From Chitinophagaceae bacterium (lineage in GTDB: Bacteria > Bacteroidota > Bacteroidia > Chitinophagales > Chitinophagaceae): a stretch of DNA of 44,915 nt. The notes under the pieces are model-generated. The model made no database searches, had not been told where the DNA came from, and saw only the letters and a program-made list of their open reading frames with translations. Below, one piece after another: positions 33,890 through 43,772 of this stretch. Every line of letters begins with the position of its first letter. Position 1 is the first letter of the stretch. Where the stretch lies: assembly GCA_035292525.1 (NCBI GenBank), contig DATDPZ010000230.1, positions 1 through 44,915 of the forward strand. Reading direction: 5' to 3'. The translations under genes were made by a program, and so were the position numbers.

Positions 33890-33994
33890 TCAATAGCTTT
33901 TTACAGGAAAAAATTGATACTGATTTTTGGATACCAATCCGGATGGACACAGGTGATTCATATAGGACAATTAAAAAACATTAAATAATAACAC

Positions 33995-34702
33995 ATGAAA
34001 AAATGGATTGTATTTGTACTTAGTTGTATTCTTTTTCTTTCATTATCTGCACAAAAAGATTCAGTGATTAAGAAAAAAGACAGTAAAAGAGATGTGCTAA
34101 TACAAACCAGTATGGGTGATATGGTGATCCGGCTTTCGGATTCCACACCTTTGCATCGCGATAATTTTCTGAAACTGGTGAAAAAGAAATTTTATGACAG
34201 TGTGTTATTTCACCGGGTAATCAGGAATTTTATGATTCAAAGCGGGGATCCCAACAGTAAAACAGCCAAACCGGGTCAATCGCTTGGAAATGGCGGACCG
34301 GGCTATACCATAGCTGCAGAATTCAGAACATCCCTGTTTCATAAAAAAGGAATGCTGGCCGCTGCCAGGATGAGCGATAATGTAAACCCGCAAAAGGCCA
34401 GCAGTGGCAGCCAGTTTTACATAGTACAGGGGAAGGTATTCAGTGATGCCGGGCTTGATTCTGCCGAAACGTTCAGGCTGAATGGCAGAAAAATTCCATT
34501 AAATCAACGGGAAGTTTATAAAACTATTGGTGGCGTTCCCCATCTTGACCAGAGCTATACTGTATTTGGAGAAGTGGTTTTGGGTCTAGATGTTCTTGAT
34601 AAAATAGCAGCAGTAGAAACCAGTAAGGGACAGGACCGGGACAGACCTGTTCAAGATGTAAAAATCATCAATACAAAACTGGTGAAACGAAAACGCAGGT
34701 AA
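33995..34702 (+). CDS. Peptidyl-prolyl cis-trans isomerase, cyclophilin type, secreted
   Basis: Signal peptide MKKWIVFVLSCILFLSLSAQ, then FHRVIRNFMIQSGDP, SGSQFYIV and TVFGEVV. Confidence 0.9.
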   Translation: MKKWIVFVLSCILFLSLSAQKDSVIKKKDSKRDVLIQTSMGDMVIRLSDSTPLHRDNFLKLVKKKFYDSVLFHRVIRNFMIQSGDPNSKTAKPGQSLGNGGPGYTIAAEFRTSLFHKKGMLAAARMSDNVNPQKASSGSQFYIVQGKVFSDAGLDSAETFRLNGRKIPLNQREVYKTIGGVPHLDQSYTVFGEVVLGLDVLDKIAAVETSKGQDRDRPVQDVKIINTKLVKRKRR

Positions 34703-34773
34703 ATACAATACTAAAAAACTTTTTAAGCATTTCAACTTGTTTTTATAATCTTTGCAGCTCAAAACACATAGCT

Positions 34774-35151
34774 ATGAATTTCCCAAAAAATCTCCGTTAT
34801 ACAAAAGATCATGAGTGGATAAAACTGGATGGTAATATTGCTACTATTGGGATTACCGATTTTGCACAAAGGGAACTGGGTGACATCGTTTATATAGAAG
34901 TAGAAACTATTGGTAAATCATTAAAAGCAGGAGAAGTGTTTGGTACCGTGGAAGCTGTGAAAACCGTTTCTGATCTGTTTATGCCATTAAACGGTACGAT
35001 AACAGAACTGAATCCTGCACTTGCAAATTCTCCCGAATCAGTCAACAATGATCCTTATGGTGAAGGATGGATGATTAAAATGAAGGTAGGGAATCCCGAT
35101 GATTTGAATGCATTAATGGATGCGGCAGCCTATCAGGCTATGGTATCATAA
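34774..35151 (+). CDS. gcvH: Glycine cleavage system protein H
   Basis: 125 aa with YTKDHEWI, the lipoyl-lysine context VEAVKTVSDL, and DPYGEGWM. Confidence 0.95.
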   Translation: MNFPKNLRYTKDHEWIKLDGNIATIGITDFAQRELGDIVYIEVETIGKSLKAGEVFGTVEAVKTVSDLFMPLNGTITELNPALANSPESVNNDPYGEGWMIKMKVGNPDDLNALMDAAAYQAMVS

Positions 35152-35180
35152 ATCTGTACAAAGAAATTTATCGTTTATAA
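35150..35180 (+). promoter_or_regulatory. ECF-type promoter candidate, AAATCT-N16-CGTTTATAA, upstream of the ECF sigma gene
   Basis: AAATCT at 35150-35155, a 16-nt spacer, then CGTTTATAA at 35172-35180. It is about 50 nt upstream of the TTG start at 35230 and has the same architecture as the two copies at 39871-39979. Confidence 0.5.
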
Positions 35181-35229
35181 AGTATACCCGAGCCAGGGAT
35201 GTATTATTTTTTTTAGCTTTAACCAACAA

Positions 35230-35772
35230 TTGAACTCAACTTCCAAATACAGCGAACAGGAGCTTATTGTTTTGCTTAAAGAGCAAAGCAATGAGGGGTT
35301 CAATTATTTATATGATAATTATTCAGGTGCTTTGTTTACCATCATTAACCAGGTGGTAGCCGACAAAGACATTGCCAGCGATGTTTTACAGGAAGTCTTT
35401 GTTAATATCTGGAGAAAAATAAACCTGTATGATGCAACGAAAGGAAGAATATTTACCTGGATGCTGAATATAGCCAGAAATGCAGCTATTGATAAAGTAA
35501 GATCCAAAGGATTCATAATTAACCTGAAAAACCAGCCTATTTCAGATAACGTAAATGCTGTAATAACTGCAAGTGTACAGCCCGAAACCTGTGATGTAGG
35601 ACTAAAAAAGGTATTGATGAAATTGAAAGAAGAGTATCGAACTTTGATTGACCTTTCGTATTTCCAGGGATTTACTCATGAAGAAATTTCAAAAATGCTG
35701 GGAATTCCGTTGGGTACCGTAAAAACAAGAATCAGAACTGCATTAAGTCAATTAAGAATATTGATACAATAA
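35230..35772 (+). CDS. ECF-type RNA polymerase sigma factor
   Basis: 180 aa with a TTG start. Region 2 reads DVLQEVFVNIWRKINLYDATKGRIFTWMLNIARNAAIDKVR and region 4 reads YRTLIDLSYFQGFTHEEISKMLGIPLGTVKTRIRTAL. Confidence 0.85.
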   Translation: MNSTSKYSEQELIVLLKEQSNEGFNYLYDNYSGALFTIINQVVADKDIASDVLQEVFVNIWRKINLYDATKGRIFTWMLNIARNAAIDKVRSKGFIINLKNQPISDNVNAVITASVQPETCDVGLKKVLMKLKEEYRTLIDLSYFQGFTHEEISKMLGIPLGTVKTRIRTALSQLRILIQ

Positions 35773-35776
35773 AAAA

Positions 35777-36550
35777 GTGAATAGCAAGGAATACATATCA
35801 AGTGGAATGATCGAAAGCTATGTGCTGGGTTTGCTCAGTGCAGAAGAAAACCTTGAAATGGAACGTGCCTGTGCAGAATACCCGGAAATAAAAGCTGCCA
35901 GAGAAGCATTTGAATTGCTGGTAGAAGAGCAAGCTATGGAAAATGCAAAGCCAGCGCCCCGGGAATTAAAACAAAAAATTGCTGCTGAACTATTTTCGGA
36001 TTTTGAGTCTGCACCGGTTATTCCAGTTTCCTCGTCTCCTGTACGGGATAGAAGCCCAAAAACTTTCCGATGGCTTCGTTATGCTGCAGCTGCCAGTTTT
36101 ATTTTACTGGTTGGTAGTTTGTGGTGGAATATGAATTTGAAAAATGAAAACAGGGAAATTAAAGCTCAGTTAGAAGATTTCAATAACAGATTGGCACAGG
36201 CAGAACAAGATGCCAGAGTAATCCAGGGCTCAAATAAGATAGCTATTTTAGCCGGCACAGCATTTTCTCCTCAGTCATCTGCAACTGTTTACTGGGATAC
36301 TACTTCACATGATGTTTATCTGCTGGTAAATAATCTCCCGATCCCCGCTTCAGATGAACAATACCAGCTTTGGGCCTTATTAGATGGCAAACCGATAGAC
36401 ATGGGTGTGTTTGAAATCACACAAAAACCACTTCAGCTATACCGGATGAAGAATGCACAGGCCGCACAGGCTTTTGCCATTACACTGGAGAAAAAAGGCG
36501 GCAGCCCCACGCCAACTCTGGAAAAAATCGTAGTGCTTGGAAATTTATAA
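35777..36550 (+). CDS. Anti-sigma factor, RskA (anti-sigma-K) type
   Basis: It starts 4 nt after the sigma gene stop. The N-terminal helix is SGMIESYVLGLLSAEENLEMERACAEYPEIKAAREAFE, there is one transmembrane helix (AAAASFILLVGSLWW), and the C-terminal domain reads YQLWALLDGKPIDMGVF...AFAITLEKKGGSPTPT, as typical of RskA. Confidence 0.8.
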   Translation: MNSKEYISSGMIESYVLGLLSAEENLEMERACAEYPEIKAAREAFELLVEEQAMENAKPAPRELKQKIAAELFSDFESAPVIPVSSSPVRDRSPKTFRWLRYAAAASFILLVGSLWWNMNLKNENREIKAQLEDFNNRLAQAEQDARVIQGSNKIAILAGTAFSPQSSATVYWDTTSHDVYLLVNNLPIPASDEQYQLWALLDGKPIDMGVFEITQKPLQLYRMKNAQAAQAFAITLEKKGGSPTPTLEKIVVLGNL

Positions 36551-36648
36551 CCTCCTTTTTTAAAACTGTTCCTCTATTTTTTTCGTACCTCTATTGGTTC
36601 GATCGCTACTTGCTATAGTGGTTTTGGTTCTATAGTTGGTTTAAAGCC

Positions 36649-36678
36649 GGAGCCCTCTTTTGGGGGCTCCATTTTTTT
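36649..36678 (+). terminator. Rho-independent terminator about 100 nt after the anti-sigma gene
   Basis: GGAGCCC and GGGCTCC form a 7-bp stem with an 8-nt loop, followed by ATTTTTTT. Confidence 0.7.
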
Positions 36679-36782
36679 GTTTATCCCTTTTCTGCAATGA
36701 GTTATTTTAGCATTACTAAAACCGGTGAAGTCTATTATAATTTATTTCACTTTTCAATAAATATTTTTTGAGAAAGAAAAAA

Positions 36783-37151
36783 ATGCCCCTGTTTGTAGCA
36801 ATTACCTGGCTAATTGTTGTAACAATTTTGTTGTGCCTGCCCGGTAATGAGTTTCCTAAGATCAGCTGGCTAAATAAAATTTGGTTTGACAAATGGGTGC
36901 ACCTCGGTTTATTTTTTGCATTGACAGCAATCTGGTGCTTGTACTTTTCCGGTAAAAAAACTGAAACCGGCAAAAGAAGAAAAATTTTTACCCGGCTTGC
37001 AATACTAAGTTTTGTGTATGGAATGACAATGGAAGTAATTCAGCATTATTTTATACCATTAAGGTCTTTCGATGTTGGAGATATCCTGGCCGATGGAGCC
37101 GGTTCGCTGGGAGGATTTCTTTATTCATTAAGTAAATTTTTGAATAAATAA
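36783..37151 (+). CDS. VanZ family membrane protein
   Basis: MPLFVAITWLIVVTILLCLPG...DKWVHLGLFFALT...MEVIQ..IP.R.FD..D..AD..G. I prefer the ATG at 36783 to the TTG at 36768. Confidence 0.75.
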   Translation: MPLFVAITWLIVVTILLCLPGNEFPKISWLNKIWFDKWVHLGLFFALTAIWCLYFSGKKTETGKRRKIFTRLAILSFVYGMTMEVIQHYFIPLRSFDVGDILADGAGSLGGFLYSLSKFLNK

Positions 37152-37210
37152 ACCACGGGTAGTTCCGGGGTTTGAAGGAATTTATTCATCCTGAGAACAT
37201 ATATTTTACA

Positions 37211-38500
37211 TTATAACTTCCTTTTTATTTCTTCACTGTTCAATGGGCCCAGTTCAAATGAACTGTCCAGGCATTCCTGAAATAATTTTTCAGCAACTTT
37301 TTTTTCTCCGGTATTTTCAAGAATATATGCTGCATGCAGCAGGGCCTCTGGTTCATGAGTTTTTCCTAAAACAAATTTGTTCACCAGGTCATTGGCTTTA
37401 TTCACTTCTCCTTTTTTATAATATACCCAGGCCATCCAGTCATATGTTTCAGGAGTTGGCCGGTTGTTCACTTCTTTTTCTGCAAGGGCCAGTGCTTTAT
37501 CAAAATCCATCAATTCCTCCGCATAAATACGGATCAGGTATTTGTTGTACATATTTACATAAGCAGGGTTTTCAACAATTGAAACAAATTTTGAAATGTA
37601 ATCTTTTTTCAATTCTGCATCTCCTTCCCATTCTGCTATTTCTGCAAGAGTCAGGTAGAGATCCGGCATCTGGGTCTTAGTTAATATATATTGAAGAAGA
37701 CGTTTAGCTTCTTTACTGTTTTTGTCGTGAGAAAAAGCGATCCAGGCAATGCCTTTTAGTGCATACAGGAAAGTACTGTCAAGACGTAAAACATCCAGGT
37801 AATTTTTATATGCTTCTTCCACTCTGCCGGCATGACCGTACATATCCGCCAGGTTTGATTTTGCCCACAGGATCAGGGAACTTTTATTTGCAGATTCTGC
37901 CTTTCCCAACGCCTGTTCCATCAGCAGGATCGCCTTATCAAGATGGCCATAATGATCTTCCGACTTTGCTTTCCGGATCAGGTAGTCAAACTCGTTTATA
38001 TTTTTTACCTGGTTTAAATTGTCTTCCGCTTCACCAAAAAGCCCGATTTCCATTGCTGCGTCAAACTTTAAAAGCTTTATTACGTAAGGATTCACTCCTA
38101 TACTGTCTGCTAACTGCAAATATGCCCATGCATCCTGGAAACGATGTTGGGTAATGGCATTTTGTGCAATAGAAAAATAAATTTCGGGCTCTGTATTTTT
38201 TACTTTGGAAAGGCATCTGACATAAAAAGAATCAGCAATATGCAGATCATTTGCCTGGCCAGTTATTTTAAACCGATTTATATGATTGGATGCCAGTTCC
38301 AGCATATTCACATAGCTACCGGTATCTGCCAAAAGTCTGTTCTGCCAGAAGTCAATTTCTGAATTTGCATTTTCCAGCGGTATTTTCATTCTGTTTTCAT
38401 CAGAAAGAAAAACATTGTAGTCTTCAGGATTTGCAATTTTATTGTTGTTGCATGCACTAAAGAAAAACAGGAAACTTAAAAAAATAATAATCCGGTTCAT
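37211..38500 (-). CDS. Tetratricopeptide-repeat lipoprotein
   Basis: 429 aa with lipoprotein signal MNRIIIFLSFLFFFSAC, followed by repeated helical A/Y/L-pattern TPR-like units. Confidence 0.65.
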   Translation of the reverse strand: MNRIIIFLSFLFFFSACNNNKIANPEDYNVFLSDENRMKIPLENANSEIDFWQNRLLADTGSYVNMLELASNHINRFKITGQANDLHIADSFYVRCLSKVKNTEPEIYFSIAQNAITQHRFQDAWAYLQLADSIGVNPYVIKLLKFDAAMEIGLFGEAEDNLNQVKNINEFDYLIRKAKSEDHYGHLDKAILLMEQALGKAESANKSSLILWAKSNLADMYGHAGRVEEAYKNYLDVLRLDSTFLYALKGIAWIAFSHDKNSKEAKRLLQYILTKTQMPDLYLTLAEIAEWEGDAELKKDYISKFVSIVENPAYVNMYNKYLIRIYAEELMDFDKALALAEKEVNNRPTPETYDWMAWVYYKKGEVNKANDLVNKFVLGKTHEPEALLHAAYILENTGEKKVAEKLFQECLDSSFELGPLNSEEIKRKL

Positions 38501-38512
38501 AGCTGGTTGGTT

Positions 38513-38543
38513 TAAAAATCCGGGCTTACTAAAAAGCCCGGAT
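38513..38543 (-). terminator. Rho-independent terminator after the DUF4331 gene pair
   Basis: The minus strand reads ATCCGGGCT / AGCCCGGAT, a 9-bp stem with an 8-nt loop, followed by TTTTT. It lies between the distal DUF4331 gene and the TPR gene. Confidence 0.7.
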
Positions 38544-38560
38544 CAGAAATAATGTTTTAA

Positions 38561-39094
38561 TTAATGTGGTGAAGCCAGGAAAGGAAACACTGTAAGAAAT
38601 GTTTTATCATTTGCGTTTACATTATCCTTAGTTAATCCAGGATTAGCGCTGCCCATGGGCCCGCCGAAAATAAGCAGCAATTCCGTGTCAATTACATCAT
38701 CAGAAAGAGCCCTTCCGGTTAAAACATTAGTGCCATCAAAGAAAGTAGTTGTTCCACTCATTTTTACATTCAGCACATCAGTTACTAAAGCACCGGCAAA
38801 CGTAGCTTTATCCATACCCAATGCATTGGAAGTATACCCAAAACCGGTTAATACTGACTGGAACTGCGCATTAAAAGCTGCATTCATTTGAGAGGGAACA
38901 GTGTTGTTAAATTCGTTCTTGCGGGCAGAGCCGACAAATACTGTATTGATAGCCGGTCTGGCCATCTGATCTACCTGTGTATAAGTACCGGATGTGTCAA
39001 AAGTTTCAATGCTTGTCTTGTCTTTTTTGCAGCCTGCTGCAATCAGCATCATTGCTATTCCGGAGAAAACTATGAATTTATTTAGTGTATTCAT
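38561..39094 (-). CDS. DUF4331-like lipoprotein, corresponding to the C-terminal half of long DUF4331 proteins
   Basis: 177 aa with lipoprotein signal ...MMLIAAGC. MARPAINTVF and the C-terminal FPFLASPH match what I remember of the distal DUF4331 region. Confidence 0.6.
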   Translation of the reverse strand: MNTLNKFIVFSGIAMMLIAAGCKKDKTSIETFDTSGTYTQVDQMARPAINTVFVGSARKNEFNNTVPSQMNAAFNAQFQSVLTGFGYTSNALGMDKATFAGALVTDVLNVKMSGTTTFFDGTNVLTGRALSDDVIDTELLLIFGGPMGSANPGLTKDNVNANDKTFLTVFPFLASPH

Positions 39095-39125
39095 GATTAT
39101 GATTATTTTTTGATTAACGGTTAAT

Positions 39126-39797
39126 TTATTTCATTTTAGTTTCGGCCCATACGTTGATTGTTGCCACATTTCCCAAAAGTGCTTTAGGAATTTCAGCCAC
39201 AATTGACATCACATTAGTACCGGCAAATGCATCTACCCCGGGATTGCGAAACCCGGAGTGTGTGCCTCCAAGAATTTCTTTAAACCTGGACAGGTCAAAA
39301 AAGAAAGGATCATCACGGGGGCCAGCAAATATTTTGATGCCATTTGCATTGGTACCAATAGAAGGAGAAGAGCTATAAGCAGTAACAGATGTTTCTGTTA
39401 AGAGGCCATTGATTTTTACGGTACTAACAGTGCCAGTAGATCCGGGAGCTACCGGGCCATATGTCCTGAGTTTACCATTTTTAATAAGAAATTGAAAAAC
39501 GAGATCTTCCACATTATCTCCGGTATTGTCAATATTCAGTTCATACATCACATTGGATGGAAAAACTGCTGAGCCGGTAGCAGTTGGCGAAAGCAATCCT
39601 TGTGCATTAATAACAAATACCATTTTGCTGTTATCCCCAGGATTCTGGAATGCATAAATGTCGGTAATGTCGGTTCCAAGACTGGTACTGCCTGATCCTG
39701 TTACAGCAGGTGCATCAATATGATCAGCTGCATAAATTATGGCGCCTAGAGTAAAGACTCCGGCCAGGGCCGTCAATACGATTTTTCTTTTTGTCAT
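39126..39797 (-). CDS. DUF4331 family secreted protein, N-terminal half type
   Basis: 223 aa. The signal peptide MTKRKIVLTALAGVFTLGAIIYA is followed by ADHIDAP...DITDIYAF...GPRDDPFFFD, the characteristic DUF4331 opening motifs as I remember them. Confidence 0.7.
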   Translation of the reverse strand: MTKRKIVLTALAGVFTLGAIIYAADHIDAPAVTGSGSTSLGTDITDIYAFQNPGDNSKMVFVINAQGLLSPTATGSAVFPSNVMYELNIDNTGDNVEDLVFQFLIKNGKLRTYGPVAPGSTGTVSTVKINGLLTETSVTAYSSSPSIGTNANGIKIFAGPRDDPFFFDLSRFKEILGGTHSGFRNPGVDAFAGTNVMSIVAEIPKALLGNVATINVWAETKMK

Positions 39798-39870
39798 AAA
39801 AAAATTTTAGGTTTTAAATATTTATTGATTTGACCGTATAAGATGATATGCCTGTACGGAATGAATTGCA

Positions 39871-39901
39871 TTATATACGGCAGTTTTTCTTTTCCGGATT
39901 T
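39871..39901 (-). promoter_or_regulatory. ECF-type promoter candidate, AAATCC-N16-CGTATATAA, facing the DUF4331 operon
   Basis: The minus strand reads AAATCCGGAAAAGAAAAACTGCCGTATATAA. Both half-sites are identical to those of the plus-strand copy at 39948-39979. Confidence 0.55.
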
Positions 39902-39947
39902 ATGAATTTTTTTCCAGACAATCTTTTTATACCTGATTTAAGAAAGC

Positions 39948-39979
39948 AAATCCGGGAAAGTGGCTTCTCCCGTATATAA
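39948..39979 (+). promoter_or_regulatory. ECF-type promoter candidate, AAATCC-N17-CGTATATAA, facing the TonB-dependent receptor
   Basis: The plus strand reads AAATCCGGGAAAGTGGCTTCTCCCGTATATAA and ends 18 nt before the ATG at 39998. Confidence 0.55.
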
Positions 39980-39997
39980 CACATAACAAAACCGCTG

Positions 39998-42250
39998 ATG
40001 AAAAAAATAATTTTTTCAGTTTTACTGCTGTTTTCAATCAACCTCCCGGCACAAAAAGGAATTATTGAAGGATATATTAAAGACGGAGAAACCTCTTCGC
40101 CTTTGCCCGGCGCCAGTATACTGGTAACTACAGAACGTAAAGGAGAAAATACAGATCAGTTTGGCAAATTCAGAATTGCTGATATTATTCCGGGCAACTA
40201 TGAACTGGTAGCAACACATATTGGATATAAAACCGAAATTATACTGGTAGAAATTAAAGAAAACCTTGTGAGTACTGTTTTGGTGAATATGAAAAAAGCC
40301 AATCTCGATCTTGAAGAGATAAAACTGGAAGGCAGAAAAGATAACTTGCTAAATACTTTAAACCATATTGACATTATGCTCCGGCCGGTTAACACCTCGC
40401 AGGATGTATTACGGATAGTGCCGGGTTTATTTATAGCACAGCATGCAGGTGGCGGCAAAGCAGAACAAATTTTTTTAAGGGGATATGATATTGATCATGG
40501 TACGGATATTCAAATTACCGTTGATGATATGCCGGTGAATATGGTTAGTCATACACATGGGCAAGGCTATGCCGATCTGCATTTTCTTATTCCGGAAACT
40601 GTAGAAAAAGTAAATTTTGATAAAGGGCCCTATTTTTCAAACAAGGGAAACCAGGCCACAGCCGGGTTTGTGGAATTTCAAACCAAAGCGTTTATAAAAA
40701 ATAATACCATAAAACTGGAAACCGGCCGGTTCAATACACAAAGAGCAGTTGTTTTAGTAAAACTATTTAACAAGGAAAAAACCGGAAACCGGAAACAAAT
40801 TTACCTGGCCTCAGAATATTCCAGGTCGGACAGTTATTTTGAAAGTTCACAAGATTTTCATCGCTTTAACCTGATGGGTAAATACAATGTAATATTGAGT
40901 AAGCAGACTCAGCTGACAATTACAGCATCCTCATTTGACAGCAAATGGAATGCATCAGGACAAATACCGGAAAGAGCAGTAAAAAATAAATCGATCGGCC
41001 GTTTTGGAGCAATTGATAATAGTGAAGGGGGATATACAGGGCGAACCAATTTCAACATGCTCATTTCAAAACAATGGAAGAATGACTGGAAAAGTAATAG
41101 CCGGTTTTATTACAGCCGGTATCATTTCAAATTATTTTCAAATTTTACATTTTTTTTGAATGACCCGGTAAAAGGTGATCAGATTAAGCAAAAAGAGAAA
41201 AGAAATATTTATGGATATTCAACCCGGCTTTCAAAATCATGGTTGCCGGGCAATAAAAATACAATCAGCGAAATGGGATGGGGGTTTCGGCTGGATGATA
41301 TAAATGATATTGAACTGTCGAAATCTGTGAAAAGACTTCAACTGGAAACTTTACAAACCGGGAATGTGAATGAGATCAATATGTTTCTGTTCTGGAACCA
41401 GCAGGTAGATTTAACAGATCGTTTTACTATTAATGGTGGTATTCGCATTGATGCCTTTCAGTTTAAATACCAAAACCTGTTACTCCAGGAAAATAACATT
41501 CAACAGCAGCACAGAAACATTCTGAGTCCCAAATTAAATTTTGTTTACTCATTATCAGCTAAAGTAAAAATATATTTTAATAACGGAATAGGTTTTCATT
41601 CCAATGACACAAGGGTAATTCTGAATAACCAGGCAAATGATATTTTACCAAAAGTTTTGGGTTCAGATCTGGGTCTCATGCTGAAGCCGGCCAGTAACTT
41701 TATCATTAAAACTGCCATCTGGCAAATGTTTTCACAACAGGAATTTGTATATGTAGGTGATGAAGGAATAATAGAACCCGGTGGAAAAACAAAAAGGACC
41801 GGGTTGGATCTCTCCCTCAGATACCAGTTTTCAAAATGGCTGTTTGGAGATTTTGATCTGAATCTGACCAAAGCCAGGGCAACGGATAATGCGAAAGGAG
41901 AAAACTATGTTCCGCTTGCAGCAGCTTTAACAAGCATTGGCGGAATAACTGCCAAATCAAAAAATGGATTCAACGGTTCTTTCCGTTACCGGTTTATCAC
42001 TGACCGGCCCGCCAATGAGTTCAATACTATAAGAGCAAAAGGTTATATCATTGCAGATATACAATTATCCTATTCCAATTCTAATTTTGAATTCTCACTG
42101 TCAGCAGAAAATATATTTAACAGTAAATGGCGGGAGGCACAGTTTGAAACAAATTCCAGATTACAATACGAATCGGAGCCTGTTTCTGAAATTCATTTTA
42201 CACCAGGATCTCCCATGTTTCTGAAAGCTGCCTTTACATTGAAATTCTAA
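39998..42250 (+). CDS. TonB-dependent receptor with an N-terminal carboxypeptidase-regulatory-like domain
   Basis: 750 aa with signal peptide MKKIIFSVLLLFSINLPAQ. The CarboxypepD_reg-like segment is GYIKDGETSSPLPGASILV...GNYELVATHIGYK and the plug is LRGYDIDHGTDIQITVDDMPVNMVSHTHGQGYADL. The barrel ends in AAFTLKF. Confidence 0.9.
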   Translation: MKKIIFSVLLLFSINLPAQKGIIEGYIKDGETSSPLPGASILVTTERKGENTDQFGKFRIADIIPGNYELVATHIGYKTEIILVEIKENLVSTVLVNMKKANLDLEEIKLEGRKDNLLNTLNHIDIMLRPVNTSQDVLRIVPGLFIAQHAGGGKAEQIFLRGYDIDHGTDIQITVDDMPVNMVSHTHGQGYADLHFLIPETVEKVNFDKGPYFSNKGNQATAGFVEFQTKAFIKNNTIKLETGRFNTQRAVVLVKLFNKEKTGNRKQIYLASEYSRSDSYFESSQDFHRFNLMGKYNVILSKQTQLTITASSFDSKWNASGQIPERAVKNKSIGRFGAIDNSEGGYTGRTNFNMLISKQWKNDWKSNSRFYYSRYHFKLFSNFTFFLNDPVKGDQIKQKEKRNIYGYSTRLSKSWLPGNKNTISEMGWGFRLDDINDIELSKSVKRLQLETLQTGNVNEINMFLFWNQQVDLTDRFTINGGIRIDAFQFKYQNLLLQENNIQQQHRNILSPKLNFVYSLSAKVKIYFNNGIGFHSNDTRVILNNQANDILPKVLGSDLGLMLKPASNFIIKTAIWQMFSQQEFVYVGDEGIIEPGGKTKRTGLDLSLRYQFSKWLFGDFDLNLTKARATDNAKGENYVPLAAALTSIGGITAKSKNGFNGSFRYRFITDRPANEFNTIRAKGYIIADIQLSYSNSNFEFSLSAENIFNSKWREAQFETNSRLQYESEPVSEIHFTPGSPMFLKAAFTLKF

Positions 42251-42317
42251 TCACATATTCCTTATTTGTTTGGTAACCAGTTGCACAAAATCTACTTTCT
42301 GTTCTTAGTTATGGCAT

Positions 42318-42349
42318 AAAAAAAATTGACCCCTGTGGAAACAGGGGTC
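42318..42349 (-). terminator. Strong minus-strand rho-independent terminator about 360 nt downstream of prfA
   Basis: GACCCCTGT and ACAGGGGTC form a 9-bp stem at 42328-42349 with a 4-nt loop (GGAA on the plus strand). On the minus strand it is followed by AA and then eight T. Confidence 0.65.
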
Positions 42350-42493
42350 GCAACCAAAACTAACTGCTTATGAGAAAAATGACTGTTTTTAATAATCTTG
42401 TTCAAAAGTATAACGCAAATTTACTGCCATTAGTATGATCTGTCATGTTAATGAAAAATTAAAGCTCAGTCTTCGTATTTACTACAATAACAT

Positions 42494-42522
42494 CGGGTAA
42501 AATTTCTAAGAAATTTTACCCG
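42494..42522. repeat. Perfect 13-bp palindrome with a 3-nt centre in a gene-free region
   Basis: CGGGTAAAATTTC TAA GAAATTTTACCCG, followed by an A8 run on the plus strand. Neither strand has a T-tract after the hairpin. Confidence 0.7.
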
Positions 42523-42707
42523 GAAAAAAAAGATTCAACTAATAGAGCATCAGTAGTTAGTAACAATATCCCTTTTGTTAAAATAACAATTCTAAGACTT
42601 GAAGAAATTTAAAATTCAGTGGTATCATTAATCAATTAAACATCTTATACGACAGACTTTCATGAAAATAGCAAAAGCAGAAAGCTTTATCTTCTCTGAT
42701 TCTGCAA

Positions 42708-43772
42708 TTAATTTTGTTTTGCCAGCTTTTCAGAATTCTCGGCAAATTGTAAAGCATCAATGAATTCCTGGATATCTCCGTTCATAAAAGCAGGAAGGTT
42801 ATAGGAAGTAAGCCCGATACGATGATCGGTAACTCTTCCCTGGGGAAAATTATAAGTTCGGATCTTGGCGCTGCGGTCACCACTGCTCACCAGGCTTTTC
42901 CGGTGACGGGAAATTTCATCCTCCTGTTTTCTTACCTGCTCTTCATAAAGTTTTGTCCGAAGCATCTGCATTGCTTTTTCCCTGTTACCAAGTTGTGACC
43001 TTTCTGTTTGACAAATAATAACGGTACCTGTTGGCAGATGCGTCAGCATTACTTTTGTTTCCACTTTATTTACGTTTTGACCACCGGCACCGCCGCTTCT
43101 GGCCGTTTCCATCTTCACGTCACTTTCATTCAGTTCAAAGTCCACCTCTTCTGCTTCGGGCATGACAGCCACGGTGGCTGCCGAAGTATGTACACGTCCC
43201 GATCCCTCTGTTTCCGGTACTCTTTGAACCCGGTGTACGCCACTTTCAAATTTTAAAATACCATACACTTCATCACCGGTAACCTCCAGTTGCACTTCTT
43301 TATAGCCACCTACTGTTCCCTCGCTTTCACTGAGTATGGCTGTTTTCCATCCACGTCTTTCGCAATAACGGATATACATTCTTAATAATTCACCAGCAAA
43401 TAAACTGGCCTCATCTCCTCCTGTACCGGCCCTTATTTCAATAATAGCATTTTTATCGTCCTGAAGGTCTTTGGGAATCAGCATCTGCCGGATAACTGCT
43501 TCCATCTTTTCTTTTTTCTCTTCGGCTACCGGGGCTTCTGTTTTAGCCAGCTCCCTCATCTCTTCATCATCTCCGTTCAGCGCTTCTTTATAAAAAGCCA
43601 TATCATCCAGGAGTTTTCTGTATTCCTTATAAGCATTCACTATTTTTTCCAGGCTGCGGTATTCTTTGCTGGTAGCAACAAATTTTTTATTGTCATTTAC
43701 AATCTCAGGATTGGTCAGTGCAACACCCAATTGATCAAATCTTGCTTTTATGGCTTCTAACCTGTCTAACAT
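42708..43772 (-). CDS. prfA: Peptide chain release factor 1
   Basis: 354 aa with the RF1 tripeptide context RVQRVPETE and the GGQ motif [15 protein letters not shown]. Confidence 0.95.

Follow-up and report, generated by a model that had tools for sequence, protein, structure and literature searches.

A putative SigK/RskA-like σ factor circuit linked by a shared promoter motif to DUF4331 genes and a TonB-dependent receptor in a Chitinophagaceae bacterium

What does an extracytoplasmic function (ECF) σ factor control when it is encoded beside proteins of the DUF4331 family, which no paper in the literature searched mentions, and how might the activity of such a σ factor be held in check? This question is raised by seven adjoining genes in a stretch of 44,915 nucleotides (nt) from a Chitinophagaceae bacterium (contig DATDPZ010000230.1 of assembly GCA_035292525.1, positions 1-44,915 of the forward strand), and this whole stretch is called the window in what follows. 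A first-pass annotation of the window had proposed that an ECF σ/anti-σ pair is tied to a DUF4331 operon and to a TonB-dependent receptor gene by one promoter motif, and this central proposal is borne out by the conservation of the motif at 77 of 79 orthologous loci. The evidence presented here is computational and comparative throughout, and the σ circuit, a candidate small RNA and a set of envelope proteins predicted to function in metal uptake, when taken together, are best explained as a SigK/RskA-like ECF regulon, a reading to which we assign a probability of roughly 0.75.

Open reading frame calls and Pfam domains agree with the seven-gene cluster as it was first described. On the forward strand, the σ gene (35230-35772), which has a TTG start codon, encodes a protein of 180 amino acids in which Pfam finds only Sigma70_r2 (residues 27-94) and r4/r4_2 (residues 126-176) domains, and the lack of a region 3 places this protein among the ECF (group 4) σ factors. 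A gap of 4 nt separates the σ stop codon at 35772 from the start of the anti-σ gene at 35777 (35777-36550, +), and the two genes are presumably co-transcribed. The anti-σ factor has the build of the RskA type, with one predicted membrane helix (a hydrophobic stretch at about residues 97-118, as read from the sequence) followed by a putatively periplasmic RskA_C domain (Pfam PF10099, residues 103-247, E = 2e-22), and it scores 107 with NCBIfam model NF052375, which has a cut-off of 100. The reverse strand carries the genes for a DUF4331 N-terminal half (39126-39797), a DUF4331 C-terminal half (38561-39094) and, as the third gene of this operon, a tetratricopeptide repeat (TPR) lipoprotein (37211-38500; Pfam TPR, lipobox FSAC). 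The two DUF4331 halves match complementary portions of the 421-position PF14224 profile (positions up to 236 for the N-half and 368-421 for the C-half) and score 99.6 and 56.4 bits, respectively, against a gathering cut-off of 27. The gene calls also agree with the earlier statement that one of these proteins has a Sec-type signal (the secreted N-half) and that the other is a separate lipoprotein (the C-half, lipobox AAGC). The receptor gene (39998-42250, +), with an N-terminal CarbopepD_reg domain and a Plug domain in Pfam, is divergent from the operon, and a gene for a VanZ-family membrane protein (36768-37151, +; Pfam and NCBIfam VanZ) completes the cluster.

The bipartite sequence AAATCY-N16/17-CGTWTATAA had been reported at three places in this cluster. 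Exactly three matches to it were found in the window (35150-35180, +; 39901-39871, -; 39948-39979, +), compared with none in 100 shuffles of the window that preserve dinucleotide content. When the window was scanned with a two-block matrix built from the motif sites at orthologous DUF4331 loci, with 12 bits or more taken as a strong site, four strong sites were found where about one is expected, and all four lie inside 35.5-40.0 kb and less than 4.5 kb from the σ gene. The highest-scoring is the predicted promoter of the DUF4331N-DUF4331C-TPR operon (39903-39870, -; 22.2 bits), followed by a site inside the σ gene (35526-35559, +; GAAAAACC-N-CGTAAAT; 19.2 bits), a predicted receptor promoter whose -10 block ends about 18 nt before the ATG (39946-39980, +; 16.9 bits), and a site directly past the anti-σ stop codon (36560-36593, +; 12.6 bits).

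Other sequence signals in this region are less informative. The absence of a TAnnTTTG box in front of the operon and the receptor, to which the first-pass annotation drew attention, was confirmed by a window scan, which found none in the 39798-39997 intergenic region and none upstream of the σ gene; as evidence it carries little weight, given that the window contains no more such boxes than chance would provide (48 found, 57.7 expected). A scan of positions 33900-42800 for Rfam families returned nothing credible. A sub-threshold match to a plant microRNA family at 39872-39978 (27.7 bits, where the gathering score is 83) is an artefact, since the two divergent promoter copies form an inverted repeat.

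The core of the motif is conserved well beyond the window. Using alignment of DUF4331 N-half homologues, 80 loci (52-76% protein identity) were retrieved from species-representative genomes of Chitinophagaceae, Saprospiraceae/Lewinellaceae, Flavobacterium, Cytophagales and others, and a loose bipartite pattern (A[AT]CC or ATC[CT], then N15-18, then CGTA) was present upstream of the N-half gene in 77 of 79 of them, compared with 2.9 in letter shuffles (maximum 8) and 8 of 79 on the opposite strand. Among the commonest words upstream of this gene, AAATCC is the only hexamer that does not consist of A and T alone. The conserved core can be written as AAA(T/A)CC(A/G)-N16/17-CGTAnnT, in which positions that are not forced by the search pattern are kept as well, including the AA before the core, the A/G after CC and, in 97% of sites, the T at the seventh position of CGTAnnT. 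Lineages differ in detail, with AAAACC in Flavobacterium and GAAAACCGATC or GATCCA in Saprospiraceae. The motif as originally written is therefore conserved at orthologous loci in its core, whereas its TATAA tail is specific to the window.

The position of the motif also changes with the arrangement of the genes around it. If the receptor gene is divergent from the operon, 7 of 14 loci have the motif in front of it (11 of 14 when scores down to 8.5 are admitted), and the -10 block of these orthologous sites ends 2-32 nt before the start codon. If the receptor gene instead follows the TPR gene, mostly after a gap of 9-40 nt, none of 32 loci has the motif in front of it. Only 11 of 629 unrelated open reading frames across the 80 loci are preceded by the motif, and it stands before a fasciclin gene in 11 of the 12 loci that have one, where the secreted product of 180-190 amino acids is identified by Pfam (E = 1e-33) and by its match to MPT70 in the Protein Data Bank (1NYO, E = 3e-13). 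These distributions support the view that the motif behaves as a directional promoter that tracks transcription units, and with it the earlier claim that one motif ties the DUF4331 operon to the receptor. Further genes are preceded by the motif at single loci, namely those for a major facilitator superfamily transporter (locus L074, 5979-6013, -; 24.9), a CHRD-like lipoprotein (L010, 10708-10741, +; 15.3) and a HupE_UreJ_2 protein (L039, 11579-11612, +; 17.4).

The genes of the cluster differ in how faithfully they keep company. The DUF4331N-DUF4331C-TPR trio is nearly universal, with the C-half gene adjoining the N-half gene in 73 of 80 loci and the TPR gene following the C-half gene in 68 of 80. 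Of the 80 loci, 47 have a related receptor, either divergent or as the last gene of the operon, and about 29 have the σ/anti-σ pair adjoining the operon. One close relative departs from the trio: at locus L083 (9164-12851), the TPR gene is directly divergent from the receptor gene, with no DUF4331 genes between them and with a CGTAAAT box before the TPR gene, which suggests that the DUF4331 pair was lost or moved.

If the motif is read by the neighbouring σ factor, does the σ factor also control itself? Autoregulation had been proposed from the motif copy upstream of the σ gene. This copy (35150-35180, +; AAATCT-N16-CGTTTAT) has CGTT at a position where the family has 98% A, so it scores only 6.7 bits, a level at which about 12 sites are expected per window by chance. 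The strong site lies within the σ coding region (35526-35559), and its -10 block ends about 218 nt before the anti-σ start codon. When 31 σ genes were aligned by codon, a conserved valine was seen to be preceded by a variable residue (F, L, N, Y, S or A) whose codon has C as its last base in nearly every gene; the valine is almost always encoded by GTA, and the next codon, which specifies various amino acids, nearly always has T in third position. This constancy of third positions over varying amino acids argues that CGTAnnT is kept intact at the level of the DNA. A site scoring at least 12 is found at this one position in 13 of the 31 genes, with about ten more at 7-11, compared with 0.9 genes (maximum 4) when synonymous codons are resampled.

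Among the 30 σ genes of the first set, only the nearest relative (L001, 13.5 bits) has a good upstream site, and a second set of 80 σ-centred metagenome loci (L081-L160) gave a broader picture. In this set, a site of at least 12 bits lies upstream of the σ gene in 36 of 79 loci and inside it in 33 of 76. Of 74 loci, 28 have just the upstream site, 28 just the internal one and 5 both, which makes 61 with at least one; the other 13 have neither, and shuffled controls give 0-1%. These counts support autoregulation as a family trait with two alternative layouts, of which the internal one is predicted for the window; what had been claimed stands as to autoregulation and must be moved, in this genome, from the degenerate upstream site to the intragenic one. 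The σ-centred contigs almost always have TTG as the σ start codon, and they share the gene order PPIase-gcvH-σ-anti-σ-vanZ (33995-37151 in the window), with the portion from gcvH to vanZ retained in most of 35 long loci. The VanZ gene, which was initially counted with the regulon, is thus a conserved neighbor of the σ pair, but at most a possible member of the regulon, as the motif copy past the anti-σ gene runs into a terminator.

The internal promoter has a precedent in the Escherichia coli σE circuit, where the σE-dependent promoter rseA P3 lies inside rpoE with its start site 228 nt before rseA (PMC8595263); in both circuits, a σ-dependent promoter (predicted, in the window) is placed inside the σ gene about 220 nt before the anti-σ start. 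The two circuits differ in that the ECF group and the anti-σ family of E. coli are unrelated to the pair described here, and in that upstream and internal promoters are mostly alternatives to each other among the relatives of the window.

The closest described relative of the circuit is to be sought elsewhere. Of 85 NCBIfam models, SigK (NF007228) gives the best score for the σ factor, at 120 bits, and a search of the Protein Data Bank with this protein returned SigK (4NQW) and RpoE (2Q1Z) tied at E = 9e-18. The groups with RskA-type anti-σ factors (ECF18, ECF19 and ECF214) form one clade (PMC7826278), the promoter consensus listed for ECF18 is GCATCC/CGTAT (PMC13492112), and the family matrix derived here, AAA(T/A)CC...CGTAnnT, is of this type, as is a site on a Croceicoccus plasmid, GCATCC-N16-CGTAGCT. 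In addition, Actinobacteria and Yersinia have been reported to carry a conserved mpt83-sigK-rskA cassette, the SigK site of which is conserved too (PMC7509140). The type of anti-σ factor, the type of promoter and the fasciclin target in relatives therefore suggest that this system sits beside the SigK-RskA-MPT83 cassette (ECF18/19 type), outside formal SigK membership.

This kinship consists of several shared features: a two-domain ECF σ factor co-transcribed (presumably, in the window) with a single-pass RskA_C anti-σ factor, ATCC in the -35 box and CGTA in the -10 box, and, in related Bacteroidota loci, a secreted fasciclin as a motif-preceded target. The window differs from the systems of Mycobacterium and Yersinia in having a σ factor that scores under the SigK cut-off and is without the SigK cysteine pair, in having no fasciclin gene, and in its main predicted targets (split DUF4331, TPR lipoprotein and receptor), none of which is in the described mycobacterial regulon. 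The cluster had been called an uncharacterised system; this description fits the target module, which is unstudied, but not the regulator, which has SigK/RskA (ECF18/19) relatives.

What the predicted targets do is less certain. The DUF4331 N-half has 5396 homologues, and those listed are 210-260 amino acids long, mostly 222-223. A profile search of Protein Data Bank sequences with the N-half gave chance matches only, and sequence searches of the same database with the receptor and the TPR protein gave generic BtuB/Cir plug and TPR matches, with no clue to a substrate. More can be learned from gene context in other phyla, which was taken from annotated plasmids. Streptomyces has the order DUF4331-TPR-'nickel transporter' (a protein that matches both NicO and DsbD_2)-fasciclin, Nostoc has DUF4331-TPR-NicO/DsbD_2-like protein, and Rhizobium has DUF4331-HupE/UreJ. 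On a plasmid of the alphaproteobacterium Croceicoccus, split DUF4331, TPR-like, HupE_UreJ_2, ECF σ and RskA_C anti-σ genes form one gene string, with GCATCC-N16-CGTAGCT at the front of the operon. About 60 nt upstream of the latter promoter, the same plasmid (L167, 5685-5745) carries six or seven tandem copies of GGCAGGTACG. Within the Bacteroidota, HupE_UreJ_2 is present in 8 of 80 loci.

The sequence of DUF4331 itself points in the same direction. One histidine is invariant across phyla, and it is part of a segment, [ILV]-[YIFW]-A-A-D-H, found in 78 of 79 N-half orthologues. By the -3/-1 rule, the mature N-half is predicted to begin Ala-Asp-His, with this histidine at position 3, and the corresponding predicted N-termini in other phyla are SSH, SDH or SNH. 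An X-X-His sequence at a free N-terminus is an amino-terminal Cu(II)- and Ni(II)-binding (ATCUN) site. The HupE/NicO-type permease neighbors and the invariant histidine at predicted mature position 3 thus suggest handling of a nickel- or copper-type metal, and uptake of a metal of the nickel, cobalt or copper type appears to be the most likely function of the target genes, at a lower level of certainty than their regulation. The HupE/UreJ and NicO nickel/cobalt permease systems are alike in that they adjoin DUF4331-TPR in four other phyla or classes, and the window differs in having no permease gene.

A different role for the same regulon is possible, if the less probable one, in which the DUF4331, TPR and receptor proteins serve envelope redox functions or surface remodelling, as in the mycobacterial SigK regulon (MPT70/83, DipZ). 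The NicO-like neighbors in Nostoc and Streptomyces that also match DsbD_2 would fit such a role, as would the reported redox sensitivity of SigK-RskA (PMC7509140). At a Flavobacterium locus (L046, 13030-13617) and in six other loci of this genus, a gene for a lipoprotein glutathione peroxidase follows the receptor gene, which may reflect lineage synteny or hint at a redox link, and these seven loci would likewise favor the redox role. The same can be said of Adhaeribacter, in which a fused DUF4331 protein has a type-9 secretion sorting domain, implying a location at the cell surface, and is followed by TPR, the receptor being divergent and the motif present to either side; in Adhaeribacter swui (plasmid locus L164, 6977-9397), DUF4331 is a single protein of 806 amino acids and the receptor is annotated as two fragments. 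Metal handling, however, is a better fit to the HupE/UreJ partners, the TonB-dependent receptor and the invariant histidine, and the σ factor in the window is without the redox cysteine pair, so metal uptake is retained as the preferred function.

A further layer of control is predicted from the fourth strong site, which begins 10 nt past the anti-σ stop codon. Downstream of this site lies a candidate small RNA, some 85 nt long (36594-36680, +), which contains a 20-nt block (36624-36643) and ends in the strongest terminator of the region, a stem (36649-36670) with 7 G-C pairs out of 9 and a T run behind it. The same layout of promoter, about 30 nt of variable sequence, the invariant block TTGGTTCTATAGTTGGTTAA and a terminator hairpin is found in L001 and in 12 σ-centred loci. 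The promoter past the anti-σ gene scores 16.7 in L001 and 11-22 in 10 metagenome loci, where it lies 15-30 nt past the stop codon. In all, 14 loci, which belong to one Chitinophagaceae clade, keep the block. RNAalifold leaves it unpaired and shows compensatory changes in 6 of the 9 terminator pairs, and a covariance model scores 67-97 bits in the 14 loci from which it was built or that carry the block. A search with this model found no members beyond these 14 loci, its weaker hits being terminator-like, and no Rfam family matches the element.

The predicted partner of the block is the translation start of the σ gene itself (35219-35238, +; TTAACCAAC..TTGAACC), where 15 of 20 bases match the complement of the block and the duplex energy is -14.2 kcal/mol in the window. 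Over 11 loci, the mean energy of this duplex is -18.4 kcal/mol, compared with -8.8 for other start regions of the same loci, and the σ start is the best start region on the locus for the block in 9 of the 11. In 35 loci without the element, the σ start pairs at the background level (-9.3). The window has a second partner, since among its 55 start regions that of the TPR gene (38495-38515, -) pairs best with the block (-21.4 kcal/mol); the corresponding pairing is weaker in L001 (-14.4) and L083 (-13.7). Both the TPR and the σ start regions contain TAAACCAAC...TGAACC, which is complementary to the block. A promoter of its own, an unpaired seed, an intrinsic terminator and a conserved complementary target are all present at the level of sequence, and the element is probably a σ-dependent small RNA that feeds back on σ translation.

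A more doubtful interpretation of these data treats the block and hairpin as the 3' end of the σ/anti-σ mRNA, that is, as a terminator with a cis element that pairs with the 5' start of the same transcript. The element does lie 10-45 nt past the anti-σ stop codon, its terminator is the only strong one in the operon, its promoter site scores only 12.6 in the window, and in loci L092 and L093 the block is present but a good -10 box is not. Against this, of the 13 distinct loci listed, 11 have a σ-type promoter ahead of the block (27-31 nt away in 10 cases), with scores that reach 21.6. Both interpretations share the same regulatory logic, which is pairing with the σ start region. If the element is a separate small RNA, as we consider probable, the circuit recalls that of E. 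coli σE, which also has σ-dependent small RNAs with intrinsic terminators (MicA, RybB and MicL; PMC4102768, PMC1804206); it would differ in that the candidate is predicted to pair with the start of its own σ gene rather than with porin or lipoprotein mRNAs.

It is crucial to point out what weighs against a SigK/RskA-like regulon with metal-uptake targets as the account of this locus. We infer the start sites, the σ dependence and the inducing signal alike. About 50 of the 80 DUF4331 loci have no σ gene within 8 kb, and most σ-centred loci have no DUF4331 gene within 10 kb. The score of the σ factor with SigK model NF007228 is far under the cut-off (120 compared with 226), and its single cysteine is in the sequence ETCDV, whereas the SigK pair (C133/C183 in Mycobacterium tuberculosis) is present in 94% of ECF18 and 56% of ECF19 proteins (PMC7509140). 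A search of the 45-kb window found neither a fasciclin gene nor a HupE/NicO permease gene. For the DUF4331 N-half, an AlphaFold2 model from 21 sequences is of moderate confidence (predicted local distance difference test, 69.6; predicted template-modelling score, 0.68), comparison of this model to the Protein Data Bank with Foldseek found no structural relative (best E = 0.06, template-modelling score 0.26), and the cleavage site, on which the X-X-His N-terminus depends, comes from a rule and not from a dedicated prediction tool. The matches of NicO-like neighbors to DsbD_2 allow a redox rather than a metal role. Finally, the loci with the small RNA belong to one clade, in which the co-occurrence of the element with a complementary start region may be due to shared ancestry.

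With the σ gene often distant from DUF4331 loci, the pairing of σ factor and targets rests on the shared motif. The same distances in both sets of loci could mean that some other ECF σ factor, with its gene elsewhere in the genome, reads the motif and that the neighboring pair is unrelated to the DUF4331 and receptor genes, and related ECF groups do have similar -35 and -10 boxes (ECF11 is listed with GTGATC/CGTATA; PMC13492112). This is unlikely, given that 61 of 74 loci have the same motif either ahead of the σ gene or within it, that the pair abuts the operon in Flavobacterium, in Cytophagales and on the Croceicoccus plasmid, and that the four strong sites of the window are all within 4.5 kb of the σ gene. 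The adjacency of the pair to the operon, the motif at the σ gene and the Croceicoccus gene string are also the reasons for which the σ factor is linked to the motif here.

Two further ideas are very improbable. The copies between the operon and the receptor gene (39871-39901 and 39948-39979) are in inverted orientation, and gave the spurious hairpin-type Rfam match, as half-sites of an operator for a dimeric repressor or activator might, but this was rejected because orthologous loci have single directional copies (one before the N-half gene where the receptor is downstream in the operon, and others before fasciclin genes and inside the σ gene), and the 16/17-nt spacing and CGT-type -10 box are typical of ECF promoters. 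Cell-surface signalling of the FecI/FecR type, in which the receptor itself would signal to the anti-σ factor, is suggested by an ECF pair genetically linked to a TonB-dependent receptor, as in FecI/FecR/FecA, and was rejected since Pfam finds no STN signalling domain on the receptor (only CarbopepD_reg and Plug) and an RskA_C rather than a FecR domain on the anti-σ factor; moreover, the receptor gene is the last gene of the target operon in most relatives, so that the receptor is a predicted target rather than a demonstrated sensor.

The preferred SigK/RskA-like regulon can be described as follows. The membrane anti-σ factor would keep the σ factor inactive until an envelope signal frees it, and free σ factor would then read promoters of the form AAA(T/A)CC-N16/17-CGTAnnT. 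Four transcripts are predicted to result: the DUF4331N-DUF4331C-TPR operon, the divergent receptor gene, a transcript that starts inside the σ gene and carries the anti-σ gene, which would provide negative feedback by analogy to rseA P3 of E. coli, and, directly past the anti-σ gene, a small RNA of some 85 nt. The site upstream of the σ gene would be a degenerate fifth site, and basal σ expression is probably provided by read-through from gcvH. By pairing through its single-stranded block across the TTG start of the σ mRNA and, in the window, also with the TPR start, the small RNA would add a post-transcriptional brake. The metal would pass from the outer-membrane receptor to the secreted DUF4331 N-half, with its ATCUN-like X-X-His terminus, which may act in the periplasm together with the lipoprotein C-half and the TPR lipoprotein, and would reach a HupE/NicO-like permease in the inner membrane, the gene for which belongs to the cluster in other organisms and is missing from this window.

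A broader proposal, which is tentative and which we think has the odds against it, is that SigK/RskA-type ECF systems are regulators of an unrecognised envelope metal-acquisition module that extends across phyla. Such a module would consist of DUF4331 (an ATCUN-type nickel/copper protein that is often split), TPR, a HupE/NicO permease and, in diderms, a receptor, with fasciclins of the MPT70/83 kind as accessory parts, and in one Chitinophagaceae clade the σ factor would also turn on a small RNA and thereby block translation of its own mRNA.

As an account of the window, the initial description is amended in three ways, in that the system is SigK/RskA-like, the predicted autoregulatory promoter of the window is inside the σ gene, and the circuit probably includes a small RNA. 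The comparisons support an ECF σ/anti-σ regulon of a known kind whose predicted target module is uncharacterised but widely conserved. In this way, an unstudied family with thousands of members gains a candidate regulator, a conserved promoter and fixed partners (the TPR protein, the receptor and HupE/NicO permeases), as well as a concrete biochemical hypothesis in the form of an N-terminal X-X-His metal site. As a compact case of feedback in nature that lends itself to study, the circuit combines alternative upstream and intragenic promoters with a candidate small RNA complementary to the σ start codon. The shared promoter type also links DUF4331 genes to the SigK-RskA-fasciclin cassette, and tractable species of Flavobacterium or Chitinophaga could serve to ask what SigK-type systems sense.

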